Below are positions 2,285 through 27,985 of a stretch of 64,000 nt of DNA, piece by piece; positions within the stretch are counted from its first letter, which is position 1, and every line of letters starts with the position of its first letter. The DNA is taken from positions 680,452 through 744,451 of the forward strand of contig JAKPOP010000010.1 in NCBI GenBank assembly GCA_029547805.1. The letters are read 5' to 3'. The position numbers and the translations under genes were made by a program. The DNA comes from Deltaproteobacteria bacterium. GTDB lineage: Bacteria > Myxococcota_A > UBA9042 > DTJE01. Below the pieces are notes generated by a model, which saw only the letters and a program-made list of their open reading frames with translations, was not told the origin of the DNA and did no database searches.

Positions 2285-4903
2285 CTACGGACGGCGATGC
2301 CGGGAGGGTTCCCCGGGAACCGGTGGAACCTCCAGCCCCCACTCGGCCAGGGAGACCAACAGCGTCCCCAGGGGCCGGGCGTTCAGGATGCCCGAACTCG
2401 GGGTGGGCGTCGTCGGCCTCTCCCGGGAGAGTCCGTGGAACCACTCCACCCAGTCGTTGGACACCCGGAGGCTCCGGATGGCCAGGTCCACCAGGAAGGC
2501 CAGCGCCTCCATCGTGGGGCCATGGCCACTGTCCAGCAGCATCTGGAAGGTGGTCCGGTCCAGGTCCATCACCTCGCAGGGGCCCACCGCCTGGACCGAG
2601 CAGAGCCGCGGCCCCTGGTCCAGCAGCCCCATCAGGCCCACGACGTTCCCCTCCTCGATCCGACCCGCCTGCCGCGGTGCCCCCTCGTGCTGCAGGTGAA
2701 GGGTCAGGCTGCCCTGGAGGACCAGCGCGGCCCCCCAGGCCCCATCCCCCTCGTGCCAGAACCACTGCCCGGACTCCAGGACCCGCCGGGTCCCCAGGGT
2801 CCCAAAGACCTCCCGGACCTCCTCGGGAATCCGCCTCTCGAGGGTCCGGGGAAGGACCGGGAGGACGAGGCCGTCCCGCCGGGCGGACCGTTGCAGCGTG
2901 TCGAGGATCTCCGAGGCCTGGCGAATCCGCCGGACCAGCTGGGTTCCCACGGTTCGAAGCACCCCCATCCAGGAGAGGGGGTCGTGTTGCCGCAGTTCGT
3001 GCAGCAACACCCGGTCCAGCAGGCAGACCTCCGCATCGTTGTAGGCCTCCACGGTGGCGCTCCGAGGCGCCGGGTCGAGGCAGGCCATCTCGCCGATCAC
3101 GTCCCCGGGCTGGAACATGGCCAGGGCCAGGCGGGACTCCGGGGAACGTTCCACGTCCCGGTAGGCCTTCAACTGGCCCCGGACCACCACCACCATCGTG
3201 TCCCCCGCCTCCCCTTCCCGGAACAGCACCTCGCCGGACTGAACCCGCTGGACCGGAAGGAGTCCTGCCAACCGCATGTACAGGGAATGGAGACCCGCAC
3301 CCCGGGTCAGGCCCAGCAGCCGCAGCGAGGCCTCGTCGAGGATCGAGACGCGTTCCCGACAGCGCACGAGGCGCCGGGAGAAGAACTCCATGTCGGGTCC
3401 GCCGACGGCCCGCAGGGCCCAGCGCTCCCACTGCTCCCGGAGTTCCCGTTCCGCGCCGGAGACCTCTTCCAGGATTCCCTGGAGGTCCCGATCCGCCAGG
3501 ATCTCCTCGGGGCTCCGCCGAATCTCCACGTCGAACATGCCCGCCGGGTCCAGGGAATCGGGATCCTCGGGCCTCCGGGTCCACTGGGCGTCCCCCTGTT
3601 CCACCTCCGCGACAATCCGCGCCAGCCGCTGCCGCTCCCGCTGCACCATCTCCAGCAGGCCATTGATCAGGGCCCGGGCCCCCGGACTGCGCACACGGCC
3701 CATCGAGGACTGGTAGAGCCACCAGACCTTGCCCGTCCGGGGAATCCCCTCCTGGAGGGCCTCCCGAAGAACCTGCTGGATGGCGCTCGTCATCAGGAAC
3801 GGGACGTGGCGGGAGACCTGCCCCCGCTCCAACGGGTTCTCCAGTCCCATCGGGGAGGTCGTCGAGGGCGCCGGGAGGGGCGTCGGACGGCTCGGGATGT
3901 CGGGAATCGGCACGACGACGGTCGGGCCCACCCGGGATTCCCGGGCAGGAACCGCGGCGCCCAGAAGCCTCCGGGCCTCCGAGGCCGTCTGGGGTCGCCG
4001 GTTGGGATCGGTCGCCAGCAGGCTCGCCACCAGGGCGTCCAGCGCCGGGGGCACCTCCGACGCCGGAAGGAGGTCCCGGACCCGGGGTGCGGATCGATGG
4101 AATTTCTTCAACAGGATCGCCAACGAGGAACTGGCCTGGAACGGCAGCTGGCCCGTCAGCAACTCGAAGAGGATCACCCCCAGGGCATAGAGGTCCGACC
4201 GGTGATCCACGGCCTTGCCCTTCGCCTGTTCCGGGCTCATGTAGGCCGGCGTGCCGAAGAGCAGGTTCGGGTCCGACACCCGGGCCTCCAGGTCCAGGAT
4301 CCGGGCCAGCCCGAAGTCCAGTACCTTCACGAACCCCGGAGGTGAATCGAGGAGGAAGATGTTGTCCGGCTTCAGGTCCCGGTGGACCACCCCCTGGCAA
4401 TGGGCATTCTCGATGGCCTCCAGCACCTGATCGATGACCTCGACGACCTCCTCGGTCGGAAGCCGCCCCCCCCGGGAGATCCGATGGTCGGCCAGGCTGC
4501 GACCGACCAGCAACTCCATCACCAGGAAGAACTGGCCGTCGGCGGCCTGGCCGAAGTCGTGGAGCGTGATCACGTGGGGATTCGTGAGGCGGCTGGAGGC
4601 CCGGGCCTCCTGGAAGAAGCGCCGGATCGCATCGGGGTCGTTCATCCGCTCGGGTTTCAGGAGTTTCACCGCCACGTCCCGTTCCATCGACCGCTGGCGG
4701 GCCCGATAGACGGTCCCCATCCCTCCGGACCCCAGGACCTCCACCAGGGTGTAGCGATGGGCGAGCGTGCGGCCCAGGTTCCGATCCCGGTCGTCGATGC
4801 GAAAGGTCGCGGCGCCGTCGAAGGGACACGCCTCCGGTTCCCCCTCGAAGCGGGCGTCACACAGACTGCAATATCGGGCCACGACCGGACCTCCCACCTC
4901 CAT
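2285..4903 (-). CDS. Ser/Thr protein kinase fused to two C-terminal cyclic-nucleotide-binding (cNMP) domains, with an N-terminal Cys-rich zinc-ribbon-like segment
   Basis: 872 aa. Hanks kinase motifs GSGGMGTVY, VAVK, HRDLKPDN, DFG, TPAYMSPE. Two CAP/cNMP-like beta-roll regions (FREGEAGDTMVVVVRGQLKAY... and WHEGDGAWGAALVLQGSLTL...). N-terminus CSLCDARFEGEPEACPFDG. Confidence 0.9.
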   Translation of the reverse strand: MEVGGPVVARYCSLCDARFEGEPEACPFDGAATFRIDDRDRNLGRTLAHRYTLVEVLGSGGMGTVYRARQRSMERDVAVKLLKPERMNDPDAIRRFFQEARASSRLTNPHVITLHDFGQAADGQFFLVMELLVGRSLADHRISRGGRLPTEEVVEVIDQVLEAIENAHCQGVVHRDLKPDNIFLLDSPPGFVKVLDFGLARILDLEARVSDPNLLFGTPAYMSPEQAKGKAVDHRSDLYALGVILFELLTGQLPFQASSSLAILLKKFHRSAPRVRDLLPASEVPPALDALVASLLATDPNRRPQTASEARRLLGAAVPARESRVGPTVVVPIPDIPSRPTPLPAPSTTSPMGLENPLERGQVSRHVPFLMTSAIQQVLREALQEGIPRTGKVWWLYQSSMGRVRSPGARALINGLLEMVQRERQRLARIVAEVEQGDAQWTRRPEDPDSLDPAGMFDVEIRRSPEEILADRDLQGILEEVSGAERELREQWERWALRAVGGPDMEFFSRRLVRCRERVSILDEASLRLLGLTRGAGLHSLYMRLAGLLPVQRVQSGEVLFREGEAGDTMVVVVRGQLKAYRDVERSPESRLALAMFQPGDVIGEMACLDPAPRSATVEAYNDAEVCLLDRVLLHELRQHDPLSWMGVLRTVGTQLVRRIRQASEILDTLQRSARRDGLVLPVLPRTLERRIPEEVREVFGTLGTRRVLESGQWFWHEGDGAWGAALVLQGSLTLHLQHEGAPRQAGRIEEGNVVGLMGLLDQGPRLCSVQAVGPCEVMDLDRTTFQMLLDSGHGPTMEALAFLVDLAIRSLRVSNDWVEWFHGLSRERPTTPTPSSGILNARPLGTLLVSLAEWGLEVPPVPGEPSRHRRP

Positions 4904-5047: not shown

Positions 5048-5076
5048 TTTCGCTAGCATCCATGCACCAGCATACT
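5048..5076 (+). promoter_or_regulatory. Candidate sigma70-like promoter (TTCGCT-N16-CATACT) for the MBL-fold gene in the divergent kinase/MBL intergenic region
   Basis: Hexamers seen in sequence about 40 nt upstream of ATG 5115. An SD-like GGGAGGAG lies between. Weak match, by eye only. Confidence 0.25.
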
Positions 5077-5114
5077 GGCAGGCTGCAGGGAGGAGTGGCC
5101 GTTCAGGGGGGGGC

Positions 5115-6074
5115 ATGCGCATTCGATTCTATGGTACCCGTGGGTCCTCCCCGGTCTGCAGGGACGGCACCCGGAGGCATGGGGGCAACACCACCTGCCT
5201 GCGGGTCCTGTCCGCCTGCCTGCCGAGGGACACGGCCCTGCTGATCGACGCTGGGAGCGGTCTCGTCGAGGCCGCCCGGGACCTCCGGGCCGAGGGCATC
5301 CGCAAGGTCCTGCTGCTGATGACCCATTACCACCACGATCACACGATGGGATTCCCGATCGCCGGGACGACCCTGGACCCTTCCGTCGAGGTCCATGTCT
5401 TCGGGCCCCGGGAGGATGGCACCGGGCCCCGGGAGGTGTTCGACGCCCTCATGCGCCCCCCTCACTTCCCGGTGCCCTTCTCCCGCATCGAGGGCCACGT
5501 CCGGGTCCACGGCATCGACCAGATGGAGACCCAGCGGCTGCTGGTGCACCGGGAGGCGGGGTTCGTCTGGCAAGCGGCCCCCGGGCCCGACGAGGAGTCG
5601 GGGCCCCGGACCGGACCGGACCAGGACCCCCGTTTCCCGCCGTCCGACTGCCTCCGGGTCCGGATGACCCGGACCGTCCACCCGGAGTACACCGTCAGTT
5701 ACCGACTGGAGGAAGGTCCCACTGGCCGGGTCGCGGCGCTGCTGACGGACCACGAGGCCTCCGATGAGGTCCCGGACCGCCTCCGGACCCATCTCCAGGG
5801 CGTGCACCTGCTGATCCAGGATGCCCAGTACAGCCACTCCCAGTGGAAGGGTTCCAAGGCGGGGTACGGTCATGGCACCGGGGCCTTCGCGGCCCAGGTC
5901 ATGCACGCCGTCGGAGCGGTCCGGCTGGGGCTGACCCACCACGACCCCGAGGCCGACGACCCTCAGGTGGACGCCATCCGCGAGGAGGCCCGCAGGACCC
6001 TGGTGGCCCTGGAAGGCCGGGACCCGGGGGACCTCCTCTTCAGTGCCCGGGACTACCAGGAGGAGGAGGTCTGA
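5115..6074 (+). CDS. MBL-fold metallo-hydrolase, class-II cyclic-nucleotide phosphodiesterase-like (THxHxDH motif)
   Basis: Real start is the internal ATG at 5115 (M117 of track ORF 4767..6074). The upstream part of that ORF is shadow. Motif LLLMTHYHHDHTMGFP is the beta-lactamase-fold zinc motif. 319 aa. Confidence 0.8.
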   Translation: MRIRFYGTRGSSPVCRDGTRRHGGNTTCLRVLSACLPRDTALLIDAGSGLVEAARDLRAEGIRKVLLLMTHYHHDHTMGFPIAGTTLDPSVEVHVFGPREDGTGPREVFDALMRPPHFPVPFSRIEGHVRVHGIDQMETQRLLVHREAGFVWQAAPGPDEESGPRTGPDQDPRFPPSDCLRVRMTRTVHPEYTVSYRLEEGPTGRVAALLTDHEASDEVPDRLRTHLQGVHLLIQDAQYSHSQWKGSKAGYGHGTGAFAAQVMHAVGAVRLGLTHHDPEADDPQVDAIREEARRTLVALEGRDPGDLLFSARDYQEEEV

Positions 6075-6076
6075 CC

Positions 6077-6790
6077 GTGAATCGGGTCGGTCGAGGGCCG
6101 CGGGATGTGCGGGAGGTCCGGATCCGGACCGGGGTCCAGCGGGACCCGGCGGGGTCCGTGGAGGTCACCTTCGGTCAGACCGTGGTGATCGTGGCGGCCA
6201 CCGTCGGGGCATCGGTGCCCCCCTGGCTCCAGGGCAAGAGCCAGGGGTGGGTCACGGCCGAGTACGCGATGCTGCCCGGGGCCACCCCCGAGCGCCAGGG
6301 GCGCGTCCAGAAGGGGCGATCCGAGGAGATCCAGCGCCTCGTGGGACGCTCCCTGCGGGCGGCGGTGGACCTGAAGGCCCTGGGCGAGCGCCTGGTCACG
6401 GTCGATTGCGACGTCCTGCAGGCCGACGGGGGCACCCGGTGCGCCTCCATCACCGGAGGCTGGGTCGCCCTGGCGATGGCCTGCCGTCGCCTGATGGATC
6501 GGGGCCTGTTGGCCGCGTCGCCCATCCGGCATCAGGTCTGCGCCCTCTCGGCGGCGATCGTGGACGGCGAGGTCCTGGTGGACCCGGACTACTCGGAGGA
6601 CCATCGGGCCCAGGCGGACCTGAACTTCGTGATGACCGCCGACGGCCGCCTGGTCGAGGTCCAGGGCACCGCCGAGGGGGACCCCTTCCCCGAGGACCTG
6701 CTCCGGGTCGCCCTCGCCCGGGTCCGGGAGGCCCTGCCGGGGGTCCTGGAGGCCCAGCGGAGGGCCCTTCAGGAAGGGCGGTTCCCCTGA
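6077..6790 (+). CDS. rph: Ribonuclease PH
   Basis: GTG start 2 nt after the MBL stop, with AGGAGGAGG 7 nt upstream. Sequence VNRVGRGPRDVREVRIRTGV...AEGSVEVTFGQTVVI...GGTRCASITGG matches RNase PH. About 237 aa. Confidence 0.85.
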   Translation: MNRVGRGPRDVREVRIRTGVQRDPAGSVEVTFGQTVVIVAATVGASVPPWLQGKSQGWVTAEYAMLPGATPERQGRVQKGRSEEIQRLVGRSLRAAVDLKALGERLVTVDCDVLQADGGTRCASITGGWVALAMACRRLMDRGLLAASPIRHQVCALSAAIVDGEVLVDPDYSEDHRAQADLNFVMTADGRLVEVQGTAEGDPFPEDLLRVALARVREALPGVLEAQRRALQEGRFP

Positions 6791-7449
6791 GGAGGAGGCC
6801 TCGGGCCCCGATCCGGGGAGGACTCGCCACCCCGTTGCACCAGGCGATTCACGGCGCGGTAGTAGTCCACCAGGGAGACCAGGGACCCCAGGGAGACGAG
6901 CACCCCGAGCCCCAGGGCGACGGGCCCCACGAAGGGCCGGAGCGCCTCGACCCAGTGGGAGACCACGAGCCACCCGACGATGGTGTTGGCCGCCACCGCC
7001 AGGGTCAGGGACTTGACCTTGCCCGTGGGCCGGGCCTGCACGACGAACCCTTCCTTCGCCGCCAGCACCCGGAGGGTGCCCACCACCGCCTCCCGGTAGT
7101 AGACCACCACCAGCACCCAGAAGGGGATCAGGCCCACCCACATCAGGCAGAGCAGGGCCCCCACGTGGGAGAGGGCATCGGCCAGGGGGTCCACCAGTTT
7201 GCCCAGGTCCGTGACGATCCCCTGGCGCCGGGCGATCCATCCGTCCACCAGATCCGAGGCCTCCTGGAGGAACATCAGGACCCATGCCGCCATCAGGTAG
7301 CCCACGTTGAGGTCCCGGACCAGTTCCTCGGGGCTGCTGCCGTAGCCGCTTCCCCGGAGCCCCATCCAGAACAGGAACACGAAGATGGGGCTCGCGACCA
7401 GCCGCGCGAAGGAGATCCCGTTGGGCAGATTCGTGGGAATCAGCAACAT
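6769..7449 (-). CDS. pgsA: CDP-alcohol phosphatidyltransferase (PgsA-like CDP-diacylglycerol-glycerol-3-phosphate phosphatidyltransferase)
   Basis: 226-aa polytopic membrane protein with the CDP-OH_P_transf motif DLVDGWIARRQGIVTDLGKLVDPLADAL. Converges on rph with a 22-nt 3' overlap. Confidence 0.8.
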   Translation of the reverse strand: MLLIPTNLPNGISFARLVASPIFVFLFWMGLRGSGYGSSPEELVRDLNVGYLMAAWVLMFLQEASDLVDGWIARRQGIVTDLGKLVDPLADALSHVGALLCLMWVGLIPFWVLVVVYYREAVVGTLRVLAAKEGFVVQARPTGKVKSLTLAVAANTIVGWLVVSHWVEALRPFVGPVALGLGVLVSLGSLVSLVDYYRAVNRLVQRGGESSPDRGPRPPPQGNRPS

Positions 7450-7491
7450 GGCGCGATCCTAGGCCAATCCCTCGGCCTTTTCCAGGCCCCG

Positions 7492-8340
7492 TCACATCGG
7501 AGGCGGGATCCACGCCGGGGGCCTTCCCGGCAGCGGAACCACCAGGGGCGTCACGAAGGGGGGCAGCGGAATGCCCTCGTCGTCCTCGTCGGGGCCTTCC
7601 GCCGACTCCTCCCGGGCCGTCCCAGGGGCCTCCGCCGCCACTTCCCCCGTCGCTTCCGCCTTCCCCGAAGCCGGAGCCTCGGGCCCGATCCCTGCCGGCT
7701 CCCCGCCGGGGGAGGCCCCTCCCGGAGACGTCCCGGAGCCCTCCGCCGCCGGAGGCGATTCCTCGCCAGCGGCCCTGGTCCCCCGCAGAGGCGACGCGGC
7801 CGGTTCCTTCCCTCCCGACGCCTGGAGGGCCGCCAGCAGTTCCTGGACCTCCCGGGGTTCCAGGCGACCGGACCCGACCCAGACCACCCGCTGCCGACCG
7901 TCCAGCAGCACCACCACCGCCGCTCCCGGACCCGAGACACCCAGGGCCCCGGCCGCCAGTCCGCTCCAGTCCGCCCAGAGGGGCTTCCCCAGTTCCCGGG
8001 ACCGGGCCTGCAACTGGGACTGGGCGATGGGTCTGGCCGGCCAGGACCGAAAGGCCCGGAGGTCCACGATGGGCAGCACCAGCAGGCGCGGGGGGAGTTC
8101 CTTCCGCCGGGCCATCGCGATCAGGCGGTCCTTCAGGGCGCGGTTCCAGGCCGCCGTGGAGCGGTCCTCGTAGAGGATCAGGACCGGACGACCCAGGAAG
8201 GACCGGATCCGGACCTCCCGACCTTCGAGGTCCTCGAAGGGGAAGTTGGGCATGCGGCTGCCGACGACCGGGGGCCTCTGACCCAGGACCGCCGGGGCCC
8301 ACAGCAGCACCAGGGCGGCCACCCAGGCCCGGCGTGTCAT
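7492..8340 (-). CDS. Secreted thioredoxin-fold (TlpA/redoxin-like) protein lacking the CxxC motif, with an acidic/Pro-rich C-terminal tail
   Basis: Start is at the signal peptide MTRRAWVAALVLLWAPAVLGQ (M79 of track ORF 7492..8574). The ATG at 8338-8340 overlaps the upstream gene's stop (ATGA). The fold-typical FWATWCxPC region is replaced by YEDRSTAAWN. Confidence 0.6.
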   Translation of the reverse strand: MTRRAWVAALVLLWAPAVLGQRPPVVGSRMPNFPFEDLEGREVRIRSFLGRPVLILYEDRSTAAWNRALKDRLIAMARRKELPPRLLVLPIVDLRAFRSWPARPIAQSQLQARSRELGKPLWADWSGLAAGALGVSGPGAAVVVLLDGRQRVVWVGSGRLEPREVQELLAALQASGGKEPAASPLRGTRAAGEESPPAAEGSGTSPGGASPGGEPAGIGPEAPASGKAEATGEVAAEAPGTAREESAEGPDEDDEGIPLPPFVTPLVVPLPGRPPAWIPPPM

Positions 8341-9123: not shown

Positions 9124-9678
9124 CGATCACGCTCCTTGAACCAGGGGCCATGCCCCGACCACGCCCGAATGCCTCGGGCCTTCCGGCGCCCGCCCCACTG
9201 GCTGGCAACCGGTCCCTCCTGGATCAGGTCTGCCTCGACTCACGGTATCGATCTGATCCTGGGGTCATGAAGGCCGGTGGGACCACAGAACCCGGGAACG
9301 CGGATCGAACGTGGACAGGGTAGCCACCTCCAGAAGCAGGTCGATGATAACGCTTTGCCAGGAAAAGTCAACAAGCCCAAGGACAGCCATTGAACGACTC
9401 GACACAACCGACCGTTCTGACAGGGAATTCGCCGTCACGAGGGGGACGCTCGGGGGGAGGTCGGGGCCGGGTCGCTGCGGTCCCGGCGTGGCAGAATGGG
9501 GAGGCCGGACCCCCGGTTGGCCGACGCCGCCAGGGCGGAGTCGCCAGGGGGATCCGCTCCCAGGGCCGGATTTCGCATTGCACCGCCTCATGGGGATGCT
9601 ACAAGACACCGGAGGGCCGGCGGACATCCCCGGGACCGCCGGTGACGGAACTCCCGGGAAGACCAGGAGAGGACGCCC

Positions 9679-11907
9679 ATGTTCGACATCGAGAGGTCCC
9701 TGGAAACGCGGCTGCTGGAAATGGGGCGGGACCGGCCCACGGTGGTCTTCGTCGAGGCCCTGGATCCCCGGGTGCTGGAGGCCGTCTGCCACCTCACCCG
9801 CTTCTGTCGCCCGGTGCTGCTGGCCTCCCGGGAGGAGGTCCTGGAGTGCGTCCGGCAGCACCTCCAACACGTGGACCCGGCCCGGGTGGAGTACGCCCTC
9901 TCGGAGTGCGCCTTCATCCCGGTCCCGGAACAGGAGGACCTGCTCCGGGAGTTCGAGGAGGCCATTCGGGACCGCCCCGACTGCCGCTGGATCGCCCCGG
10001 AGGCGCAGGGAAGACGCAGCCGGGTGCTGGACCCGGGGATCTTCGGACTCTTCGCGGTCCGGCTGGGCCATGCGGACGTCGTGGTCGGCGGGGCGGCCCA
10101 TGCCCCGAAGGACTGGTTCCGGCCCATGCTCCGGCTCTTCGCCACCCGCCGTGACGTCTGCGAGGCCGGGATCTTCGTGCTGCCCGACGATCACCCCACG
10201 GAGATGTTCCCGAACAACATCGTGGTGTTCGGCGACGTGGCCGTGAACGCGACGATGACCCCCGACGTGCTGGCGGAGGTGGCGGTGGGGACCTGCGCCG
10301 TGGCCCGAGACATCATCCCCGAGGAGGTCCTGCCGACGATCCACGGGGCCATCGTCTCCTACTCGAACCGGGGATCCGACGAGGGCCCGTCCCCCATGCT
10401 GGTCCGGGCGGCGATGGAGAGGGTCCCGGAGGTGCTTGCCCGACGCATCACCCGTGGGGAGCGCTATCGGAGCATCCGGATCTCCGGGGAGGTGAAGATC
10501 AGCGCGGCCCTCTCCCAGCGATCGGCGGCCTACCACCTCCAGGGCGGCGAAGGGGGCCCTCTGGACCCCATCAACGTGGTGATCTGCCCGAACCTGGACA
10601 TGGGAAACCTGCTCTACAACCTCTACGCGGTCCGGTTCCCCCAGGCGCGGAAGTTCCCCCTCCTGACCGGCGTCGGGAGCCAGGCGGTGGACCTGGCGAT
10701 GGACACCGCGCCGGAGGATGTCCGGCTGGCCGTGAAGGCCACCCTGCTGCGCCTGCACCTCCACGGGGGATGGAACCGCACCCCGAAGGACACCTTCTTC
10801 CCACGCTACCGGGTGCTCGCAATCAATCCCGGAAGCACCTCGACCAAGATCGCCGTGTACGAGAACGATCGGGAGGTCTTCACCGAGGAGGTGCAGCACT
10901 CCCGCGAGGAGATGGCCCCCTTCGAGGGAAGACGCATCGTCGAGCAGTACGCCATGCGGCGCGACGCGGTGCTGGCGGCCCTGGCTCGCCACGGGCTGTG
11001 CCTCGCGGACATCGACGCCGTGTCGGCCCGGGGAGGCCTGGTGCGGCCGATTCCCCACGGGACCTACCGGGTGGACGAGGCGCTGATCCGGGACCTCCAG
11101 ACCGGGGTCCAGGGAGACCACGCCTCCAACCTCGGGGGGCTCATTGCGGACCAGTTGACCGCGGGTACCGGGAAGCCGGCCTTCATCGTGGACCCGGTGG
11201 TCGTGGACGAGGTCCCCTCCCGGGTCAAGATCACGGGCCTCCGGGAGATCCGGAGGCGGGTCATCAGCCATGCCCTGAACCAGGTCGCCACGGCCCGGCG
11301 CTTTGCCGAGGAGCAGGAGACCTTCTACGAGCGGGTCAACGTGGTGGTGGCGCACCTGGGGGGCGGAATCACGGTGGGAGCCCACCACCAGGGGCGCTAT
11401 GTGGACGTCAACAACGGCCTGGACGGGGAGGGCCCCTTCACCCCGGAGCGTTCGGGGTCCTTGCCGGTGGGCCAGCTGATCGACCTCTGCTTCAGCGGCC
11501 GGTACACCCGGGAGCACTTGAAGGCCCTCAACAAGGGCCGGGGAGGCCTGATGGACCTGCTCGGGACCAAGGACCTCCGGGAGGTGGAACGGCGCATCGC
11601 CGAGGGAGATGCCTGGGCCGCCGAGGTCTTCGAGGCCCTGGCCTACCAGGTCGCCAAGTGGGTCTGTTCGCTGCTGCCGGCCTTCGACGGGGAGCCCCTC
11701 GACGCGGTGATCCTGACCGGGGGCATGGCCCGGAGCCAGGCCCTGACCGGGCGCATCCGGGACTTCCTCCGGGCCCTGCCCTGTCCGGTGCGGGTCTACC
11801 CCGGGGAAAACGAGATGATGGCGCTGGTGAAGGGGGCCCTCCGGGTCCTCCATGGACGGGAACCGGCGCTCCTCTATCGTCCCGCCCCGCCCGTCGAGTC
11901 TCCCTGA
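9679..11907 (+). CDS. Fused phosphate acyl(butyryl/acetyl)transferase - butyrate/acetate kinase (Ptb/Pta-like N-terminal half + Buk-like C-terminal half)
   Basis: 742 aa. N-terminal roughly 340 aa has a phosphotransacylase fold. C-terminal half starts RVLAINPGSTSTKIAVYEND... (butyrate-kinase N-motif) and ends with the ASKHA-fold kinase region. SD GGAGAGGA upstream. Confidence 0.85.
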   Translation: MFDIERSLETRLLEMGRDRPTVVFVEALDPRVLEAVCHLTRFCRPVLLASREEVLECVRQHLQHVDPARVEYALSECAFIPVPEQEDLLREFEEAIRDRPDCRWIAPEAQGRRSRVLDPGIFGLFAVRLGHADVVVGGAAHAPKDWFRPMLRLFATRRDVCEAGIFVLPDDHPTEMFPNNIVVFGDVAVNATMTPDVLAEVAVGTCAVARDIIPEEVLPTIHGAIVSYSNRGSDEGPSPMLVRAAMERVPEVLARRITRGERYRSIRISGEVKISAALSQRSAAYHLQGGEGGPLDPINVVICPNLDMGNLLYNLYAVRFPQARKFPLLTGVGSQAVDLAMDTAPEDVRLAVKATLLRLHLHGGWNRTPKDTFFPRYRVLAINPGSTSTKIAVYENDREVFTEEVQHSREEMAPFEGRRIVEQYAMRRDAVLAALARHGLCLADIDAVSARGGLVRPIPHGTYRVDEALIRDLQTGVQGDHASNLGGLIADQLTAGTGKPAFIVDPVVVDEVPSRVKITGLREIRRRVISHALNQVATARRFAEEQETFYERVNVVVAHLGGGITVGAHHQGRYVDVNNGLDGEGPFTPERSGSLPVGQLIDLCFSGRYTREHLKALNKGRGGLMDLLGTKDLREVERRIAEGDAWAAEVFEALAYQVAKWVCSLLPAFDGEPLDAVILTGGMARSQALTGRIRDFLRALPCPVRVYPGENEMMALVKGALRVLHGREPALLYRPAPPVESP

Positions 11908-12007: not shown

Positions 12008-14161
12008 ATGGAATCCCGTCGATGTCCGGGAAGTCGCCTGGTGGGGATCGTGCTGGTGATGGTCTGGACCTTCGCCTGTGGCGGGGGATCCGGGACCGGG
12101 GGGATCGACGTGCTGCCCGAGGACCTGTCCGGCGTGCCGGACGGATCCCTGCCCGACGAGGCGCTGCCGGACAACGCAGCCCCCGACGCCGAGGTCGCCG
12201 GGCCGGACCTCGCGCCCGATGCGCCGGCGGACCTCGGGTCCACCGAGGACGTCGGCGGCGGAACCGACGTCCAGGCCTTCTGCCAGACCGACCAGGAGTG
12301 CGACGACGAGAACGCCTGCACGACGGATCGGTGCGTGGCCGGTCGCTGCGTGCTGTCGCGTCTGGTCTGCAACGACCTGGACCCCTGCACGATCGACTTC
12401 TGCGACCCGGTCAAGGGATGTGGGACGCTGCCGGTGGAGGGGTGCGTCACCCCCGTCTGCGAGAAGGCCACGGACTGCAATGACTCGGACCCCTGCTCCG
12501 AGGACCTCTGCGATGCGACCACCGGGACCTGCTTCTACCGGCCCGTGACCTGCGATGACAACGACCCCTGCACGGTGGACTCCTGCACGCCGGGAGTGGG
12601 GTGCGTCTCCTGGAGGGACGGGTCCTGCTCCAGGTGCCTGCTGGACTCGGAGTGCGACGACCGGGATGTCTGCACCACCGATCGCTGCGTCGACGGGGCC
12701 TGCACGCACCTGCTCACGGTCTGCGACGACAAGAACCCCTGCACCCAGGATCGCTGCGACCCCCGGAAGGGTTGCCTGGCGGTGCCCCTTGCGGGATGCG
12801 GCCCGTGCCAGACCAACGACGAGTGCGACGACGGGGACGTCTGCACCCAGGACGCCTGCAAGGACGGCCAGTGCCTGCACCAGGACGTCCCCTGCGACGA
12901 TGGCAATGCCTGCACCGCCGATCGGTGCGTCCGGGGCCCGGGCTATCCCTACTGCGCCTATGACAGCCTCCCGGAGGGAACGGCCTGCGACGACCAGGAC
13001 CCCTGCACCGGACCCGACATCTGCTCCCAGAAGACCTGTGTCGGGACGCCGTTGTCCTGCGATGACGGAGACCCGTGCACCCAGGACTCCTGCGACCCGG
13101 CGGCCGGCGGATGCCTGCACGTCCGGATCCCGGGCTGCGGCACCGGGTGCACCGGCGATGCGGCCTGCGACGACCACGACCTCTGCACGACGGACCGGTG
13201 CGTGAAGGGCCTCTGCCAGAACACCCCGGTCTCCTGCGACGACGGCAATGCCTGCACCGCCGATTCCTGCGACCCGAAGACCGGGACCTGTGTCTTCGAG
13301 GCCATTCCCGGCTGCGGGACGAAGTGCCAGGTGGACGCCGACTGCAACGACAACGACGTCTGCACCCGGGACAAGTGCGTGAACGGGGCCTGCCAGTTCA
13401 CCGCCATCGTCTGCAACGACAACAACCCCTGCACGGTCAACGACCGGTGCGTCCGGGGACCGGGCTACCCCTACTGTGCCTACGACCCGGCCCCCGATGG
13501 GACCGCCTGCGACGACGGGAACCTGTGCACCCAGAAGGACCAGTGCCTCCAGAAGACCTGCACGGGCACCGCGGTCTCCTGTGATGACGGCGATCCCTGC
13601 ACGACCGACGCCTGCGACCCCGCCAAGGGCTGCACCCACACCGCGATCCCGAACTGCAATGTGAAGTGCCAGGCCGACGCCGACTGCAACGACAACGACG
13701 TCTGCACCCGGGACAGGTGCGTGAACGGCCTCTGCCAGTTCACGGCGATCATCTGCAACGACAACAATCCCTGCACGGTCAATGACCGGTGCGTCCGGGG
13801 ACCGGGCTACCCCTACTGCGCCTACGATCCGGCCCCCGACGGGACCGCCTGCGACGACGGGAACCTCTGTACCCAGAGGGACCAGTGCCTCCAGAAGACC
13901 TGCACGGGCACCGCGGTCTCCTGCGACGACGGGAATCCCTGCACCACGGATGCCTGCGACGCCACCAGCGGGAAGTGCAGCCACACGGCCATCCCCGACT
14001 GCGTGACCCCCTGCCGGACCTCCAGGCAGTGCGACGACGGCAATCCCTCCACCTGCGACTGCTGCTGTGCCCTGTCGGGGTCCGCCTACCAGTGCTACAA
14101 CGTCGCCTCCCCCGTGGGCGTGTGCCCCCCCTGCACCCAGGTCCCGGGCTGCGTCCAGTGA
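12008..14161 (+). CDS. Secreted Cys-rich repeat lipoprotein (myxobacterial-type CxDxxxCTxDxC...CDDxNxCTxDxCDPxxGxC modules)
   Basis: Start at ATG 12008 (M53 of the track ORF) gives signal peptide MESRRCPGSRLVGIVLVMVWTFACGGG with a lipobox-like FAC. SD GGGAGAGGG upstream. About 18 Cys-rich modules. 718 aa. Confidence 0.8.
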   Translation: MESRRCPGSRLVGIVLVMVWTFACGGGSGTGGIDVLPEDLSGVPDGSLPDEALPDNAAPDAEVAGPDLAPDAPADLGSTEDVGGGTDVQAFCQTDQECDDENACTTDRCVAGRCVLSRLVCNDLDPCTIDFCDPVKGCGTLPVEGCVTPVCEKATDCNDSDPCSEDLCDATTGTCFYRPVTCDDNDPCTVDSCTPGVGCVSWRDGSCSRCLLDSECDDRDVCTTDRCVDGACTHLLTVCDDKNPCTQDRCDPRKGCLAVPLAGCGPCQTNDECDDGDVCTQDACKDGQCLHQDVPCDDGNACTADRCVRGPGYPYCAYDSLPEGTACDDQDPCTGPDICSQKTCVGTPLSCDDGDPCTQDSCDPAAGGCLHVRIPGCGTGCTGDAACDDHDLCTTDRCVKGLCQNTPVSCDDGNACTADSCDPKTGTCVFEAIPGCGTKCQVDADCNDNDVCTRDKCVNGACQFTAIVCNDNNPCTVNDRCVRGPGYPYCAYDPAPDGTACDDGNLCTQKDQCLQKTCTGTAVSCDDGDPCTTDACDPAKGCTHTAIPNCNVKCQADADCNDNDVCTRDRCVNGLCQFTAIICNDNNPCTVNDRCVRGPGYPYCAYDPAPDGTACDDGNLCTQRDQCLQKTCTGTAVSCDDGNPCTTDACDATSGKCSHTAIPDCVTPCRTSRQCDDGNPSTCDCCCALSGSAYQCYNVASPVGVCPPCTQVPGCVQ
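13322..14001 (+). repeat. Near-perfect tandem duplication (2 x about 340 bp, about 93% identical) inside the Cys-rich lipoprotein gene
   Basis: Copy 1 is about 13322-13661 (GAAGTGCCAGGTGGACGCCGACTGCAACGACAACGACGTCTGCACCCGGGACAAGTGCGTGAACGG...). Copy 2 is about 13662-14001 (GAAGTGCCAGGCCGACGCCGACTGCAACGACAACGACGTCTGCACCCGGGACAGGTGCGTGAACGG...). Earlier modules are far more diverged. Confidence 0.8.
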
Positions 14162-15943: not shown

Positions 15944-16055
15944 ACCCCCAGGCCTTCCGCCCTCCGTCGCGACGGAGCCCGGGGATCCCATGGGGGCGAC
16001 ACTCCTGGCAGGTGGCCCTTGCTCCAGCGGCCTTGCGACGCCAGCGAGCGGGCCG

Positions 16056-16084
16056 CTTGACGAGGCGCAGGCAGCCCCCCACAA
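16056..16084 (+). promoter_or_regulatory. Candidate sigma70-like promoter TTGACG-N17-CACAAT upstream of the MoxR/Bat operon
   Basis: Hexamers read directly about 75 nt upstream of moxR start 16158. SD CAAGGAGGTGG precedes the ATG. Confidence 0.35.
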
Positions 16085-16157
16085 TGCCCCCGCCGGGAAT
16101 AGGAATCGCGTCCAGGGGGTTCCGTGCCCGGTGGACCGGCAAGGAGGTGGGGTCGCC

Positions 16158-17147
16158 ATGGAACAGGACGTCCGGGTGCTGACGGAGATGGTCCGCAAGG
16201 AAAGCGCCTTCGTGGACCGGGTGGTCGGGGAGATCGCCAAGGTGGTGGTGGGGCAGCGAGACCTGGTGGATCGGATCCTGATCGCCCTTCTCTGCCGGGG
16301 GCACGTGCTGCTGGAGGGGGTTCCGGGCCTCGCCAAGACCCTGACGGTGAAGACGGTGGCCCAGGTCCTCGACGCCTCCTTTGCCCGGATTCAGTTCACC
16401 CCGGACCTGCTCCCGGCGGACCTGACCGGGACCCAGGTCTTCAACCCCCAGACGGGGTCCTTCCACGTCAAGAAGGGCCCGATCTTCGCCGGGATCGTGC
16501 TGGCCGACGAGGTGAACCGCGCCCCGGCCAAGGTCCAGTCGGCGCTGCTGGAGGCGATGCAGGAGCGCCAGGTCACCATCGGGGACCAGACCTACCGACT
16601 TCCGGATCCCTTCCTGGTCCTGGCGACCCAGAATCCCATCGAGCAGGAGGGCACCTATCCCCTCCCCGAGGCCCAGATCGATCGATTCATGCTGATGGTG
16701 CGGGTCACCTACCCCTCCCGGGACGAGGAACTCCAGGTCATGGAGCGCATGGCGCTCTCGGAGCCTCCCCGGGTGGACCGGGTCCTGACGCTCGGGGAAC
16801 TGGACCGGGCCCGGTCGGTCCTCGGCGAGATCTACATGGACCCCAAGGTGAAGGAGTACATCGTGGATCTGGTGCTGGCGACCCGCCGGCCCGAGGACTA
16901 CGGGGCGGCCTCCCTGAAGCCCTACATCCGCTACGGGGCGTCGCCGCGAGCCACGATCTACTGGAACGAGGCCGCCCGGGCCCACGCCTTCCTCCGACAC
17001 CGGGGCTACGTGATTCCCGAGGACGTGAAGGCGGTGGGGCTGGACGTGCTCCGGCACCGGGTCATCCTCTCCTACGAGGCGGAGGCGGACAACGTGACGG
17101 CCGAGGACCTGCTGAAGCGGGTCTTCGATTCGGTGGCGGTCCCGTGA
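16158..17147 (+). CDS. MoxR-family AAA+ ATPase
   Basis: Start at MEQDVRVL (M57 of the track ORF). Walker A GVPGLAKT, Walker B LADEVNR, and typical MoxR length of 329 aa. Confidence 0.9.
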   Translation: MEQDVRVLTEMVRKESAFVDRVVGEIAKVVVGQRDLVDRILIALLCRGHVLLEGVPGLAKTLTVKTVAQVLDASFARIQFTPDLLPADLTGTQVFNPQTGSFHVKKGPIFAGIVLADEVNRAPAKVQSALLEAMQERQVTIGDQTYRLPDPFLVLATQNPIEQEGTYPLPEAQIDRFMLMVRVTYPSRDEELQVMERMALSEPPRVDRVLTLGELDRARSVLGEIYMDPKVKEYIVDLVLATRRPEDYGAASLKPYIRYGASPRATIYWNEAARAHAFLRHRGYVIPEDVKAVGLDVLRHRVILSYEAEADNVTAEDLLKRVFDSVAVP

Positions 17148-17178
17148 CCGGGGCCGGCTCCCGGAGACGGGGGATCCC

Positions 17179-18156
17179 ATGATGGGATGGTTCGGACAGG
17201 ACCGGCGACCCGCCATCGACCAGGAAGACCCCGGAGACGAGCAGGCCCTTCGGGGCGTGCTGGCACGGGTGCGACGCATCGAGGTGGTGGCCCAGCGGCT
17301 GGTCAACGAGCAGCTGGGCGGGCGCTACCACAGCATCTTCAAGGGGCGGGGCATGTCCTTCGACGAGGTGCGCCCCTACGCCCCGGGGGACGAGGTGCGC
17401 CTGATCGACTGGAACGTCTCGGCCCGCACCGGGCAGTTGCACGTGAAGCGCTTCGTCGAGGAACGGGAGCTCACGGTGATGCTGGTCGCCGATGCGAGCC
17501 TCTCGATGGACTTCGGCCTCTCGGCCGCCCGGTGGTCCGGGCGGGAGGGGATCCAGATCGCCGAGGACCGCAAGCGGGAGGTGGCGGCGCAGATCGCCGC
17601 GGCGGTGGCCCTCTCGGCCCAGATCAACGGCGACCGGGTCGGCCTGCTGGTGTTCGGGGACCAGGTGGTGCGGTTCATCCCCCCGAAGAAGGGACGCCGC
17701 CATGCCCTCCGGGTGATCCGGGAGGTCCTGACGATGCGCCACGGGGGCTCCCCGACGGACCTGGCCGGGGCCCTGTCCTACCTGGGTCGCGTGCTCAAGC
17801 GCCGGGCGGCCCTCTTCCTGATCTCCGACTTCCACGTGGGGGACTTCGAGCGGGAACTGCGAGTGGCGGTGCGCCGACACGACGTCCACGCCTTCCTGGT
17901 CCGGGACCCGGTGGAGGGGGACCTGCCCGAGGCGGGCCTTGTGACGCTGCGGGACCTGGAGTCGGGGGAACGGGTCGTGGTCCCGACGGACCGGAAGACC
18001 CGGGAGCGCTATCGCCAGCTGGTCCGGGCGGAGGAGGACCGCTGCCGGCAGGTCTGGGACCGCTACCGGGTTCCCTGGACCCGGTTCTCGACCGACGAGT
18101 CCTACGAGCGGGCGCTGACCAGGCACTTCGCCCGACTGAAGGGGAAGACGCTGTGA
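17179..18156 (+). CDS. DUF58 protein (MoxR-associated, VWA-like)
   Basis: 325 aa. Conserved DUF58 core (FKGRGMSFDEVRPYAPGDEVRLIDWNVSART...VMLVADASLSM). Immediately downstream of moxR. Confidence 0.85.
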   Translation: MMGWFGQDRRPAIDQEDPGDEQALRGVLARVRRIEVVAQRLVNEQLGGRYHSIFKGRGMSFDEVRPYAPGDEVRLIDWNVSARTGQLHVKRFVEERELTVMLVADASLSMDFGLSAARWSGREGIQIAEDRKREVAAQIAAAVALSAQINGDRVGLLVFGDQVVRFIPPKKGRRHALRVIREVLTMRHGGSPTDLAGALSYLGRVLKRRAALFLISDFHVGDFERELRVAVRRHDVHAFLVRDPVEGDLPEAGLVTLRDLESGERVVVPTDRKTRERYRQLVRAEEDRCRQVWDRYRVPWTRFSTDESYERALTRHFARLKGKTL

Positions 18157-19214
18157 GGAGGAGTCCCCAGTACCACCCCCGGCGACACCCGTCCTCCCCC
18201 GCGGTAGGCTGGGGGCCCGGCCCGCTCCGGGAGGCGCTGTTGGCAGGCTTGTTGCTCCTGGGGGGACTGGTCTCCCCGGCGCTGCAGGCCCAGTCCCCAG
18301 AGGACCCCGGTCCGCCGGCAGCCGCCCCGGAGCCCGGGGAGGTCCGCATCGCCGTGGAGGGTCCCTCGGGACCAGTTCCCATCGGGTCCCCCGTCGAGGT
18401 GCGGTTCCACCTGGAGTACCCGGTCGGGACCCGGGTCTTCTTCCCCGAGAAGCCCGAGGTGGCGCCCCTGGTGCTGGTCGATGCCCGACACCAGGTCTCC
18501 CCGGTGCTGGGGATTTCCAGTTCCGAGGACCATGTCCTGAGGCTGCTGCCCGTCCGCCGGGGCGCGGCCCACGTACCTTCCTTCGAGGTTCCGTATGTCA
18601 CGGCCGCCGGGGAGGCCCGGACCGGCCGCACCCCCGAGGCGACCTTCGAGGTCGCCTCGGGGCTCGACGACACCGAGGCCCCGGAACTGGCCCCGGCGGG
18701 CAAGACCGTGCCGGTCCGGGTGCCGAACCTCCCACTGCTGATCGTGGCGGGCGTCCTGGCGGTCTCCCTGGTCGCCGCCGGGGGAGCCATCTGGGCCTGG
18801 AGGCGCTATCAGGCCTGGAAGGAGGCCCACCGGCCGCCGCCTCCCCCTCGGCCGGCCCACGAGGTGGCCCTGGAGAAACTGCGGGACCTGGAGGCCCGGG
18901 GCCTGGCCGAGGCCGGGGAGTTCCAGGCCCTGGCACTCGGAGTCTCGGAGGTCCTCCGAGAGTTCCTGGGAAACCTCCACGGGTTCCAGGGGGTGGACCT
19001 GACGACCTGGGAGGTCCTCCGGGCGGTCCAGGGCCGGGACCTGGGACGGGCCAATGCGATGGACCTGGAGGACTTTCTGTCCTTCTGCGACCTGGTGAAG
19101 TTTGCGAAGTACCAGCCTGCCCCCTCGGAGGGACAGGGAATCGTTCCCAGGGCCCGGGACATCGTGATGCGGGTGATGGAGGGGCGACCCGGGGGACCGG
19201 CCGCCGGGGCCTGA
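18153..19214 (+). CDS. Bat-operon membrane protein (signal peptide + central TM helix, DUF4381-like position)
   Basis: GTG start overlapping the DUF58 stop (GTGA). N-terminal ...LREALLAGLLLLGGLVSPALQAQ signal. TM LPLLIVAGVLAVSLVAAGGAIWAW. Not G/P/R-rich after the first 30 aa. Confidence 0.55.
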   Translation: MRRSPQYHPRRHPSSPAVGWGPGPLREALLAGLLLLGGLVSPALQAQSPEDPGPPAAAPEPGEVRIAVEGPSGPVPIGSPVEVRFHLEYPVGTRVFFPEKPEVAPLVLVDARHQVSPVLGISSSEDHVLRLLPVRRGAAHVPSFEVPYVTAAGEARTGRTPEATFEVASGLDDTEAPELAPAGKTVPVRVPNLPLLIVAGVLAVSLVAAGGAIWAWRRYQAWKEAHRPPPPPRPAHEVALEKLRDLEARGLAEAGEFQALALGVSEVLREFLGNLHGFQGVDLTTWEVLRAVQGRDLGRANAMDLEDFLSFCDLVKFAKYQPAPSEGQGIVPRARDIVMRVMEGRPGGPAAGA

Positions 19215-19226
19215 GGGAGGGGCGAC

Positions 19227-20339
19227 GTGCGATTCGAAAGCCCTTGGTTCCTGCTGCTGATCCTCCCTGCGGGTCTCCTCGTCGTCCTGGGCCTGCGACG
19301 GCAGCGCCGGGTGCCCCCGGCCCTCCTCTTTCCCTCGATCCGGGAGGTGAAGGCCCTGGGAAGGTCCTTCCGGGCCGCCTGGGCCGACCTTCCCCGGATG
19401 ATCCAGGGCGTCGCGGCGCTGCTGGCGGTGGTGGCCCTGGCACGCCCCCAGTTGCCCGAGGCCGACCAGATGGCCGGGGAAGGAGCGGACTACGCCATTG
19501 CCCTGGACATGTCGGGGTCCATGAACGCCGTGGACCGGAAGGCCGAAGAGATCCTGGAGTGGCACCGGAAGGGCCAGGAACCCCCGAATCGCTTCGAGAC
19601 GGCCCGCCAGGTCCTCCGGGAGTTCATGAAGGACCGGGTGGGGGACCGGGTGGCGATGGTGATCTTCAGCAGCAAGGCCTGGGTCAAGTTCCCCCTGACC
19701 ATGGACCGGGACGCGATGCTGCCCATCCTGGACTCCCTCGTGCTGGACGACCGCACCCGGGGCGGGGCCGGCCAGGAGACCTGCACGAACGGATGCACCA
19801 TCACCGGCGAGGCGACGGCCATCGGCGACGCCCTGGCCCGGGCCTACCGGAGGCTGCAGGACTCCCCGGCAAGGTCTCGGAACATCATCCTGATCACCGA
19901 CGGGGACAACAACGCGGGCAAGGCCGACCCCCTGGAGGTGGCCCGGTTCATCGCCCAGCAGTCGCCGGACCGGCCGGTGCGGGTCTGGACCTTCCTGGTG
20001 GGGACCGGGCGGGAGACCTGGCTCCCGGCGGTCCACGAGTTCACCGGCCAGCCCCTGCGGACCCCCGAGGGCCTCCGGGTCTACGAGCGGCCCAACCAGC
20101 CCTTCCCGGTGAACCCGGACCTCCTGCGGTCCATCGCCGAGGCGACGGGGGGAAAGGCCTTCGAGTCGACCAGCGCCGAGGAGTTCCGGAAGGCCTTCGA
20201 GAACCTGGAGCGGACCGAGTTCACCTCGGTTCCCCTGCGGCAATGGCGGGACATCTTCCTGTGGCCCCTGGTCCTGGCCCTGGTCCTGCTGGGACTGGGA
20301 GAGGTCCTGAGCCTGACGGCGTGGCGCCGGTGGCCTTGA
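19227..20339 (+). CDS. batA: BatA-like VWA-domain membrane protein
   Basis: GTG start with SD GAGGGAGGGG upstream. N-terminal TM. VWA MIDAS DMSGSM...ITDGDNN. C-terminal TM. Confidence 0.85.
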   Translation: MRFESPWFLLLILPAGLLVVLGLRRQRRVPPALLFPSIREVKALGRSFRAAWADLPRMIQGVAALLAVVALARPQLPEADQMAGEGADYAIALDMSGSMNAVDRKAEEILEWHRKGQEPPNRFETARQVLREFMKDRVGDRVAMVIFSSKAWVKFPLTMDRDAMLPILDSLVLDDRTRGGAGQETCTNGCTITGEATAIGDALARAYRRLQDSPARSRNIILITDGDNNAGKADPLEVARFIAQQSPDRPVRVWTFLVGTGRETWLPAVHEFTGQPLRTPEGLRVYERPNQPFPVNPDLLRSIAEATGGKAFESTSAEEFRKAFENLERTEFTSVPLRQWRDIFLWPLVLALVLLGLGEVLSLTAWRRWP

Positions 20340-20358
20340 GGAGCCCGGGGGCGGAGAG

Positions 20359-22848: not shown

Positions 22849-22863
22849 CGGCGGGGTGGGCCC

Positions 22864-26565: not shown

Positions 26566-27841
26566 GCCCGCTGATCAGGAACTCGCTGGTGATCATGCCC
26601 CCGAGGATGGTCCCCCACATCACGAACCCCTCGGGGCTCCGGGCCACGTCGGGGTCCCGGAGGGACGCGAGGACCGCCAGCAGCAGGAACAGGTGGAGGG
26701 CCGTCGCGGCGGGGATCCCGTAGTAGAGGAAGGGGGCGATGTAGCCGTTGTGACCGGTGGCCTCGAAGGCGACGGCCATGCCCTCGATGCCCCCCATCCC
26801 GAACACCAGTTCGTCCCAGCGCAACAGGCCATCCTGGTAGTAGCGGATCTGGTCCTGCCACAGGCGCACCCGGATGGCTGCGGACCCCTTCAGGGCCCCC
26901 TCCTCGTAGGCCTTCTCGACCCCTTCCTCGATCAGGCCGGGGATCGTCACGGGGGCATCCCCCTGAGGCACCCGGACCTGGAGCATCGCCAGCACCACCG
27001 CGGCGGTGATCAGCAGGCCCGCCACGCCGACCTTGGACCCCTGGCGGGCGAACAACAGCACCCCCACGAGCCCGATGGCACTGGCAACGAAGCCCGCTCG
27101 GGACAGGGCGAAGACCACCGAGACCACCGAGAGGGTCAGCAACAGCAGCCCCGAGAGTCGCCCCAGGGCCCGGCGATTCACCACCGCGGTGGTGGCCCAG
27201 ACGATGCCCAGAGACCCGATGCCCCCGACCTCCCAGGGGCCTGAATAGGCCCCGACCGCCCGGACCTGGTGCATCTCCCAGGTGGACTCGTAGGCCGTGT
27301 GGTTGAACAGGTCGAAGATCAGGGGAGAGAAGCGGTCCAGGGCCACCAGCGACGCAGCCAGAAACAGGCTCAGGGAGAGGGATCGGATGGCCAGGACCTG
27401 GTCCCGCCGGGTCCGGACCCAGGACAGCAGGATCACCGGCGGCGCCAGGTACCGGAGGTCCGAAAAGACCTGCTCCGCGACCTTGGCCCAGCCCAGGCCC
27501 GGCAGCCAGGGGTGCCGGTACCACAGCACGAGCAGGCCGTAGAGGTGCAACACCGCCAGGAGGACCAGCAGGCGGAGGGTCCACCGCAGCGTCGGCGTGG
27601 CGTCCCGGATCCCCTCCCGGAACGGACGCCAGGCCCAGACCGTCCGGAACAGGCACAGCAGGAGGTACCAGTTCTGGAGGCCCATGCGCTGCCAGGGCAG
27701 CAGGTCCCGCACCAGGGGATGGGGATGGAGCATCACCAGGGGCCACATCATCGCCAGGGCGACCCGGGGTCGCAGCAGCGTCGCGACGCAGGCCACGGCC
27801 CAGCACCCGATGTAGGCGGCCAGGTAGATCGTCGGGATCAT
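26417..27841 (-). CDS. O-antigen ligase/polymerase (Wzy_C / WaaL-like) polytopic membrane protein
   Basis: 474 aa with about 10-12 TM helices and a large periplasmic loop with Wzy_C-like content. Gly/Pro-rich C-terminal tail. Confidence 0.7.
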   Translation of the reverse strand: MIPTIYLAAYIGCWAVACVATLLRPRVALAMMWPLVMLHPHPLVRDLLPWQRMGLQNWYLLLCLFRTVWAWRPFREGIRDATPTLRWTLRLLVLLAVLHLYGLLVLWYRHPWLPGLGWAKVAEQVFSDLRYLAPPVILLSWVRTRRDQVLAIRSLSLSLFLAASLVALDRFSPLIFDLFNHTAYESTWEMHQVRAVGAYSGPWEVGGIGSLGIVWATTAVVNRRALGRLSGLLLLTLSVVSVVFALSRAGFVASAIGLVGVLLFARQGSKVGVAGLLITAAVVLAMLQVRVPQGDAPVTIPGLIEEGVEKAYEEGALKGSAAIRVRLWQDQIRYYQDGLLRWDELVFGMGGIEGMAVAFEATGHNGYIAPFLYYGIPAATALHLFLLLAVLASLRDPDVARSPEGFVMWGTILGGMITSEFLISGLTTSVLASMFALTGPVPGDGPPGPVPGGPSRGPGASPNGGVGPLPAPPR

Positions 27842-27985
27842 GGGTGCCTTCCCCGCTGGCGGATCCTACCACCCCCGGGGGGGATCGGCTTCTCGCGCCA
27901 GAATGCATGCGCCCGGGACCGGGCGAAGGGTGGACGACAACCGCCCTCTTGTAGGATGATCCGGCCACTCGACCGGAGAGGATCC

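Follow-up and report, generated by a model that had tools for sequence, protein, structure and literature searches.

A butyrate kinase fused in one chain to a Pta-lineage domain that lacks the Ser-Arg dyad

The window analyzed here is the whole stretch of 64,000 nucleotides (nt) of contig JAKPOP010000010.1, from an assembly labeled Deltaproteobacteria bacterium, and it contains a gene on its plus strand that encodes a phosphotransacylase-fold (PTA_PTB) domain and a butyrate kinase (Buk) in one polypeptide (Table 1). A single open reading frame (ORF) of 742 amino acids (aa) runs from an ATG at position 9679 to a stop codon that ends at 11907, with no internal stop. It shows coding-type codon bias, with a GC content of 0.92 at third and 0.45 at second codon positions in a genome of about 70% GC, and the N-terminal residues MFDIE are kept in the orthologs. 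A preliminary description had proposed a fusion of a phosphotransacylase (Ptb or Pta) with an acyl kinase (Buk or Ack), and the ORF together with the Pfam and NCBIfam matches bears out a single 742-aa chain with PTA_PTB-family and butyrate kinase domains. Pfam recognizes PTA_PTB (PF01515) across residues 17 to 348 at 79.8 bits, compared with a gathering cutoff of 24, and Acetate_kinase in the C-terminal half.

Table 1. Position of the fusion gene, its domains and the residues discussed in the text, numbered from the first nucleotide of the window
Feature	Coordinates	Strand	Basis
Complete ORF: Pta-like domain, conserved linker, butyrate kinase	9679–11907, stop included	+	Pfam, NCBIfam, orthologs, codon bias
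Shine-Dalgarno-like AGGAGAGG	9665–9672	+	6–9 nt 5' of the ATG, from sequence
N-terminal PTA_PTB-fold domain, residues 17–348; assigned to the Pta lineage, divergent, with family-specific insertions	9727–10722	+	Pfam, Pta models, Foldseek, dN/dS
Arg148, equivalent to Arg133 (CoA 3'-phosphate-binding) of M. thermophila Pta	10120–10122	+	Alignment; invariant in clade
Ala340-Met341 at the Ser309-Arg310 dyad site	10696–10701	+	HMMER, MAFFT alignments, ortholog columns
Asp347, equivalent to Asp316 (proposed general base) of Pta	10717–10719	+	Alignment; invariant
Conserved inter-domain linker, residues 349–376, with WxRTPKDTFF segment	10723–10806	+	Conserved columns, pLDDT, dN/dS
Butyrate kinase (ASKHA) domain, residues 377–733	10807–11877	+	TIGR02707, 1saz/1x9j, Foldseek, invariant motifs
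INPGSTSTK, presumed phosphate loop	10822–10848	+	Part of butyrate kinase domain

Could the fusion have arisen from an assembly or sequencing error, in which a hidden frameshift or a lost stop codon joined two adjacent genes? We regard this as vanishingly improbable, and the sole feature that speaks for it is a run of five G residues near the fusion junction. When 5.8 billion proteins were searched, the matches filled at least 120 clusters made up of full-length two-domain proteins of 732–782 aa, with 62–100% identity and 98–100% coverage. A scan of one genome per species found 80 genome loci with both halves in the same frame, about 30 metagenome loci are likewise in frame for both halves, and in tblastn alignments of the genome and metagenome loci the halves lie 16–76 nt apart. 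More than 120 orthologs of full length, 54–91% identical, come from Acidobacteriota (cultured Geothrix among them), Myxococcota, Spirochaetota and further groups. Geothrix fermentans, G. rubra and G. limicola are among the roughly ten Geothrix species with the fusion in an isolate genome, and it also occurs in metagenome-assembled genomes (MAGs) of Holophagaceae, Thermoanaerobaculaceae, Terriglobia, Spirochaetales, Fibrobacteraceae, Gemmatimonadales, Oligoflexales and Anaeromyxobacteraceae. The same in-frame fusion recurs in over 100 independent assemblies, and protein-level conservation of the linker excludes a hidden frameshift. The fusion gene is genuine: conservation of both the fusion and its linker rules out an assembly artifact, and the uninterrupted junction noted in the preliminary description is shared by the relatives.

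In the one-genome-per-species scan the family occurs mainly in anaerobic Acidobacteriota, Spirochaetota and Fibrobacterota. The best genome match, 91% identical, lies on a contig labeled as a Myxococcota MAG that is collinear with the window at 84–87% nucleotide identity over 18 kb, which agrees with the myxobacterial affiliation suggested earlier and makes the source of the window closely related to that organism. The nearest database protein (P0001, listed as 100% identical) differs from the window protein at two positions, P375R in the linker and Q571R, and P375 of the window stands where most family members have Arg. Public databases already contain the architecture in large numbers under the plain name "butyrate kinase"; a full-text literature search found no description of the fusion or of its degenerate domain, and a Geobacter paper describes separate genes only and no fusion.

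Judged by its matches, the C-terminal half is a bona fide butyrate kinase and is predicted to be active. The NCBIfam butyrate kinase equivalog TIGR02707 (cutoff 289.1) scores 444.3 bits, residues 378–729 corresponding to positions 1–348 of the 351 in the model. The structures of Thermotoga maritima Buk2 (PDB 1saz and 1x9j) match at E 1e-101 and align end to end with residues 377–733 at about 46% identity, and Foldseek gives template modeling (TM) scores of 0.84–0.89 to 1saz, 1x9j and 9a71. The segment RVLAINPGSTSTK opens the kinase half exactly at the start of the stand-alone T. maritima Buk2; unlike the known Buk enzymes compared, Buk2 and the TIGR02707 model, which are stand-alone and about 350–375 aa long, the fusion has a 376-aa N-terminal extension. 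The motifs INPGSTSTK, RGG, DPVVVDE, SHALN, HxGGG, PERSG and GENE are all present and are invariant in 30 orthologs, and by analogy with acetate kinase we take them to have phosphate, adenosine and catalytic roles.

Within the linker, G363, D371, T372, F373 and R376 are invariant and W365, T368, P369 and F374 nearly so, and its ratio of nonsynonymous to synonymous substitution rates (dN/dS) is 0.13–0.23. We modeled the fusion with AlphaFold2 from 30 family sequences, and the resulting model (mean predicted local distance difference test score (pLDDT) 81, predicted TM score (pTM) 0.79) has an ordered linker with a pLDDT of 81–91. No solved chain covering both halves was found with Foldseek. The ordered linker and the pTM of the model are consistent with a rigid coupling between the two domains.

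The N-terminal half is more divergent from the enzymes of its family. Profiles that we built ourselves match it at E 1.7e-40 for Pta and 0.25 for Ptb, and the Ptb models TIGR02706 and NF004472 are not among the NCBIfam matches at E ≤ 0.01. On these profile scores the transferase half belongs to the Pta lineage and not to Ptb, so that the earlier Ptb/Pta-Buk/Ack identification stands for Buk (444 bits) and fails for Ptb. The Pta models TIGR00651 and NF007233 give 78.9 and 90.3 bits, far below their cutoffs of 311 and 310. The half has the two-domain α/β fold of Pta and EutD (1qzt, 1r5j, 1td9, 6iow, 1vmi), but its identity to them is 20–32%, it reaches only about one quarter of the equivalog cutoff scores, and it carries extra insertions around residues 80–115 and 257–270. 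Searched exhaustively by HMMER against 1.84 billion representatives, the N-terminal half alone recovered a discrete clade at about 100 bits or more, composed of fusions of 720–753 aa, down to 34% identity, and a few stand-alone proteins of 335–395 aa; ordinary Pta enzymes score at most 83 bits. With Foldseek, the TM scores of 0.74–0.83 are equally high to active Pta and to the sensor PTA domains of MaeB.

The clearest departure is at the catalytic dyad. Ala340-Met341 occupies the position of Ser309-Arg310 in Pta of M. thermophila and of Ser279-Arg280 in Ptb of Clostridium acetobutylicum. HMMER alignment with five solved Pta structures sets NDL-SR-G...ED(I/V) against VDL-AM-D...EDV, and in MAFFT alignments with classical Pta, Escherichia coli EutD, Ptb and MaeB the dyad of the fusion is likewise replaced. 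Ser-Arg is present in every Pta (NDL-SR-G), EutD (DL-SR-G) and Ptb ((S/T)-SR) enzyme compared, whereas the site is Ala or Pro followed by Met, Ile or Leu in all 120 of 120 orthologs, with Ser or Arg in none. Published work places the Ser and Arg among the few residues common to PTA and PTB enzymes (PMC9706017) and reports that replacing them strongly lowers kcat (PMC6461089). With Pta scores of 79–90 bits against about 310 and the dyad gone, the transferase is not supported in the form that the preliminary description gave it.

Other parts of the active site are kept. The Arg133 and Asp316 equivalents listed in Table 1 take their roles, CoA 3'-phosphate binding and proposed general base, from PMC6461089 and PMC9706017, respectively. 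N310 and Y313, the equivalents of Asn279 and Tyr282 in the coenzyme A (CoA) site, are invariant or nearly so, and K325 and D342 are also invariant in the clade. Relative to the 91% identical homolog, dN/dS is 0.18 for the N-terminal domain, 0.23 for the linker and 0.10 for the kinase, and the overall range for the N-terminal domain is 0.18–0.32; the domain is under purifying selection and is not decaying. Across the fused family there is an inverse pattern, in which members with Ser-Arg lack the Arg133 equivalent (FFLPC or FLAPC) and dyad-less members have it (FRPM).

Where, then, do relatives of the fusion encode a phosphotransacylase? The two-gene Ptb-Buk pathway is encoded by the ptb-buk operon of C. 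acetobutylicum and by the bkd operon of Bacillus subtilis, which includes ptb and buk. The fusion loci draw on the same two protein families, and most relatives have a canonical ptb beside the buk-containing gene, often in an operon; they differ from the classical pathway in that the buk gene has its own Pta-like domain without the dyad, and the window has no adjacent ptb. We fetched non-redundant fused loci and counted a ptb within 5 kb, accepting a negative only where the flanks reached at least 1.3 kb; flanking genes were judged from curated gene calls and targeted tblastn, six-frame ORF clustering being uninformative (spurious ORFs, high GC). Of 91 informative loci whose fusion is dyad-less (Ala/Pro plus Met/Leu/Ile), 77 (about 85%) have a canonical ptb within 5 kb and 14 have none, with 10 more uninformative; where the basic residue is kept (Ser-Arg or Ala-Arg/Lys), only one of nine has a ptb and eight have none, with two more uninformative. 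In 38 of the 77 the ptb is on the same strand and no more than 300 bp downstream of the fusion, and every linked Ptb retains Ser-Arg. Geothrix rubra, for example, has a stand-alone PTA_PTB gene 783 bp downstream of its fusion, whose 300-aa product is Ptb-like (TIGR02706, 304 bits) with an intact VLS-SR-GD motif. Since most fusions lie beside a separate canonical ptb, a self-sufficient channeling enzyme, as first imagined, is unlikely for the clade. Linked Ptb proteins from different arrangements are only 35–49% identical while their partner fusions are 57–74% identical, which suggests that the linkage has been maintained or has been established more than once.

A neighbor-joining (NJ) tree of the N-terminal domains leads from classical Pta (Ser-Arg) to a basal clade of fused and stand-alone proteins (Ser-Arg), then to intermediates with Ser-Lys, Ala-Arg, Ala-Ser and Ala-Lys states, which include spirochetes and the metagenome locus L110, and finally to a single crown clade with Ala/Pro-Met/Leu sites that contains the window protein. 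The window falls in a crown subclade with L001, L082, L003 and L038, and none of these loci has an adjacent ptb. L110 (contig Ga0265297_10000316) encodes its fusion at 6001–8145 and a ptb at 5072–5974, 27 bp upstream on the same strand; with an Ala-Arg dyad site, a canonical ptb and a branch beside the dyad-less crown, it is a possible transitional form. Stand-alone relatives of the N-terminal domain (the loci L119, L121 and L122, match at 6001–7131, and the proteins P0130 and P0160) are about 375–395 aa long and have Ser-Arg intact and no Buk within 6 kb; they could represent either the ancestor-like state before fusion or later splits of a fused gene. At the Geothrix rubra locus (L081) a divergent gene upstream of the fusion, at 6560–7834 on the minus strand, encodes an AcetylCoA_hydro/AcetylCoA_hyd_C CoA-transferase or hydrolase, and an AcetylCoA_hydro homolog occurs somewhere within about ten other fetched Geothrix and Holophagae loci, which suggests a local metabolic island for short-chain acyl-CoA.

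The loss of the dyad from a PTA-fold domain has a precedent. In E. coli MaeB the PTA domain is devoid of catalytic residues and serves to sense acetyl-CoA (PMC7902834). In the hybrid malic enzymes MaeB, DME and TME (6zn*, 9kr*), as in the fusion, a PTA-fold domain without Ser-Arg is attached to another enzyme, but there the enzyme is unrelated whereas here it is a kinase of the same pathway, and the PTA domain is C-terminal in MaeB and N-terminal in the fusion. MaeB of E. coli reads HVL-TP-I at the dyad site, with Thr-Pro where the window has Ala-Met, and it has lost the general-base Asp that the fusion retains. Solved Pta structures match the N-terminal half at E 1e-13 to 1e-17 and MaeB at 1e-10 to 1e-11; because Pta matches better by E-value and the Foldseek scores are equal, the resemblance to MaeB is convergent and not a sign of family membership. 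A second comparison lies within the fused family itself. Some PTA-Buk fusions (P0127, P0133, P0142, L087, L088, L098 and L111) have the same architecture, linker position and N-terminal domain family, but they retain Ser-Arg and have no equivalent of Arg148, their Pta-model scores are higher (118–154 bits, compared with 79 for the window protein), and no ptb is adjacent. They are more plausible than the dyad-less proteins, on these sequence features, as true bifunctional enzymes.

We lean towards reading the fusion as a butyrate or branched-chain acyl kinase that carries a pseudo-Pta domain, which would act, in the manner of MaeB, as a sensor of CoA or acyl-CoA or as a module for docking Ptb. 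The Pta-derived domain would have lost phosphotransacylase catalysis and been kept by selection as a non-catalytic module. Its likeliest role would be that of a binding module for CoA or acyl-CoA that makes kinase activity depend on the acyl-CoA pool; docking of the separately encoded Ptb is the secondary possibility. The dead domain would gate the kinase, or hold Ptb in a channeling complex, and in the window's lineage some other part of the genome would have to encode the Ptb or Pta that supplies the acyl phosphate. The fuller evolutionary version, in which this is a second, independent repurposing of the PTA fold and a Pta-Buk enzyme lost catalysis stepwise (Ser-Arg to Ala-Arg or Ala-Lys to Ala-Met) after ptb became linked, the domain then sensing CoA or acyl-CoA or tethering Ptb, is credible to us, if somewhat short of an even chance. 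Several observations weigh against the sensor or docking role. The dyad-less proteins form what is essentially a single crown clade, so their association with ptb is phylogenetically non-independent, and the tree of N-terminal domains is a crude NJ tree without bootstrap. The 14 informative dyad-less loci without a nearby ptb include the window (across its 64 kb), the 91% identical relative and the whole window subclade, so that there the fused domain might be the sole phosphotransacylase. Asp347, the proposed general base, does not vary, yet a pure sensor would need none and MaeB has lost its Asp; K325 and D342, likewise invariant, could provide a different catalytic arrangement.

These last points are also the strength of the view that the protein is a true bifunctional phosphotransacylase-butyrate kinase, with a rearranged site (using, for example, K325, D342, D347 and R148) and a product handed directly to the fused kinase. 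Neither domain is truncated, purifying selection acts on both, Asp347 and the CoA-site residues are kept, and the window, L001, L082, L003 and L038 lack a separate ptb nearby; moreover, basal fused members have Ser-Arg and no adjacent ptb, and therefore the ancestral fusion was probably bifunctional. For the dyad-less clade, however, we consider such an enzyme unlikely, given that Ser-Arg has been replaced by Ala/Pro and Met/Leu/Ile throughout, that an invariant Asp follows the dyad site and puts a negative charge at the place of phosphate binding, that about 85% of informative relatives have a linked canonical ptb, and that the window protein falls below the Pta scores of the dyad-retaining fusions. 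The specific loss of the phosphate-binding Arg, with the CoA site and general base kept and a new invariant Asp342 gained, would also suit a different acyl-CoA reaction, such as hydrolysis of the thioester or transfer of the acyl group to a non-phosphate acceptor, performed with the CoA site and Asp347, so that two non-canonical steps were coupled. This is less probable still: the searches made found no precedent within the PTA_PTB family, there is no conserved partner gene that points to another acceptor, and the linked ptb suits the ordinary Ptb-Buk pathway.

A search among the window neighbors for operon partners found none, the surrounding genes being unrelated: they encode a CDP-alcohol phosphatidyltransferase, a metallophosphoesterase, an RNA recognition motif (RRM) protein, a Cys-rich repeat protein, an esterase and a MoxR/DUF58/BatA-D cluster. 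A profile search of all six-frame segments of the 64-kb window found no other PTA_PTB homolog. The preliminary description had also linked the enzyme to isovaleryl-CoA as a starter unit in myxobacteria, a proposal that is without support, with unrelated neighbors and a family mostly in anaerobic Acidobacteriota, Spirochaetota and Fibrobacterota. A scan for a plus-strand promoter-like site 5' of the fusion gene and for a terminator found neither, the scan being uninformative for a non-model phylum, and Rfam and tRNA scans of the window gave no match. Between the fusion gene and the divergent RRM-protein gene is a 555-bp intergenic region (9124–9678) with a GC content of 0.63–0.65, compared with about 0.70; its sole promoter-like site is on the minus strand (9371–9344), and it has no Rfam match. 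Directly 3' of the fusion, at 12008–14161 on the plus strand, internally repetitive DNA encodes a protein of about 717 aa, secreted or lipoprotein-like, with Cys-rich "Dictyostelium (slime mold) repeat" units (Pfam Dicty_CTDC, at least seven matched stretches, 236 bits), and the order of fusion followed by Dicty_CTDC protein also occurs in L001 and L082. Further along the plus strand, 15990–24687 holds genes for a MoxR AAA ATPase, DUF58, BatA-like, VWA/TPR-like and BatD-like proteins (a Bat aerotolerance-type operon), and 27269–32551 is a very long ORF of 1760 aa with coding-type third-position GC. The minus strand encodes, at 2285–4903, a Ser/Thr protein kinase of 871 aa that carries two cyclic-nucleotide-binding domains.

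What would the fusion mean for the organisms that encode it? It bears on the control of substrate-level phosphorylation from short-chain and branched-chain acyl-CoAs in anaerobic Acidobacteriota (Geothrix, Holophaga and Thermoanaerobaculia), Spirochaetota and uncultured Myxococcota. Scoring of ptb and buk in such genomes by domain hits could count a probably inactive phosphotransacylase, or miss the real one. If the N-terminal domain is a sensor or adaptor, it would be the second case, after MaeB, of a PTA fold that became a regulatory pseudoenzyme. The family still includes members with the dyad, members that are half degenerate and members that are fully degenerate, which makes it a tractable system for studying how an enzyme domain turns into a regulator, and, if the stepwise scheme is true, its members would be living intermediates of enzyme-to-sensor evolution inside one pathway.

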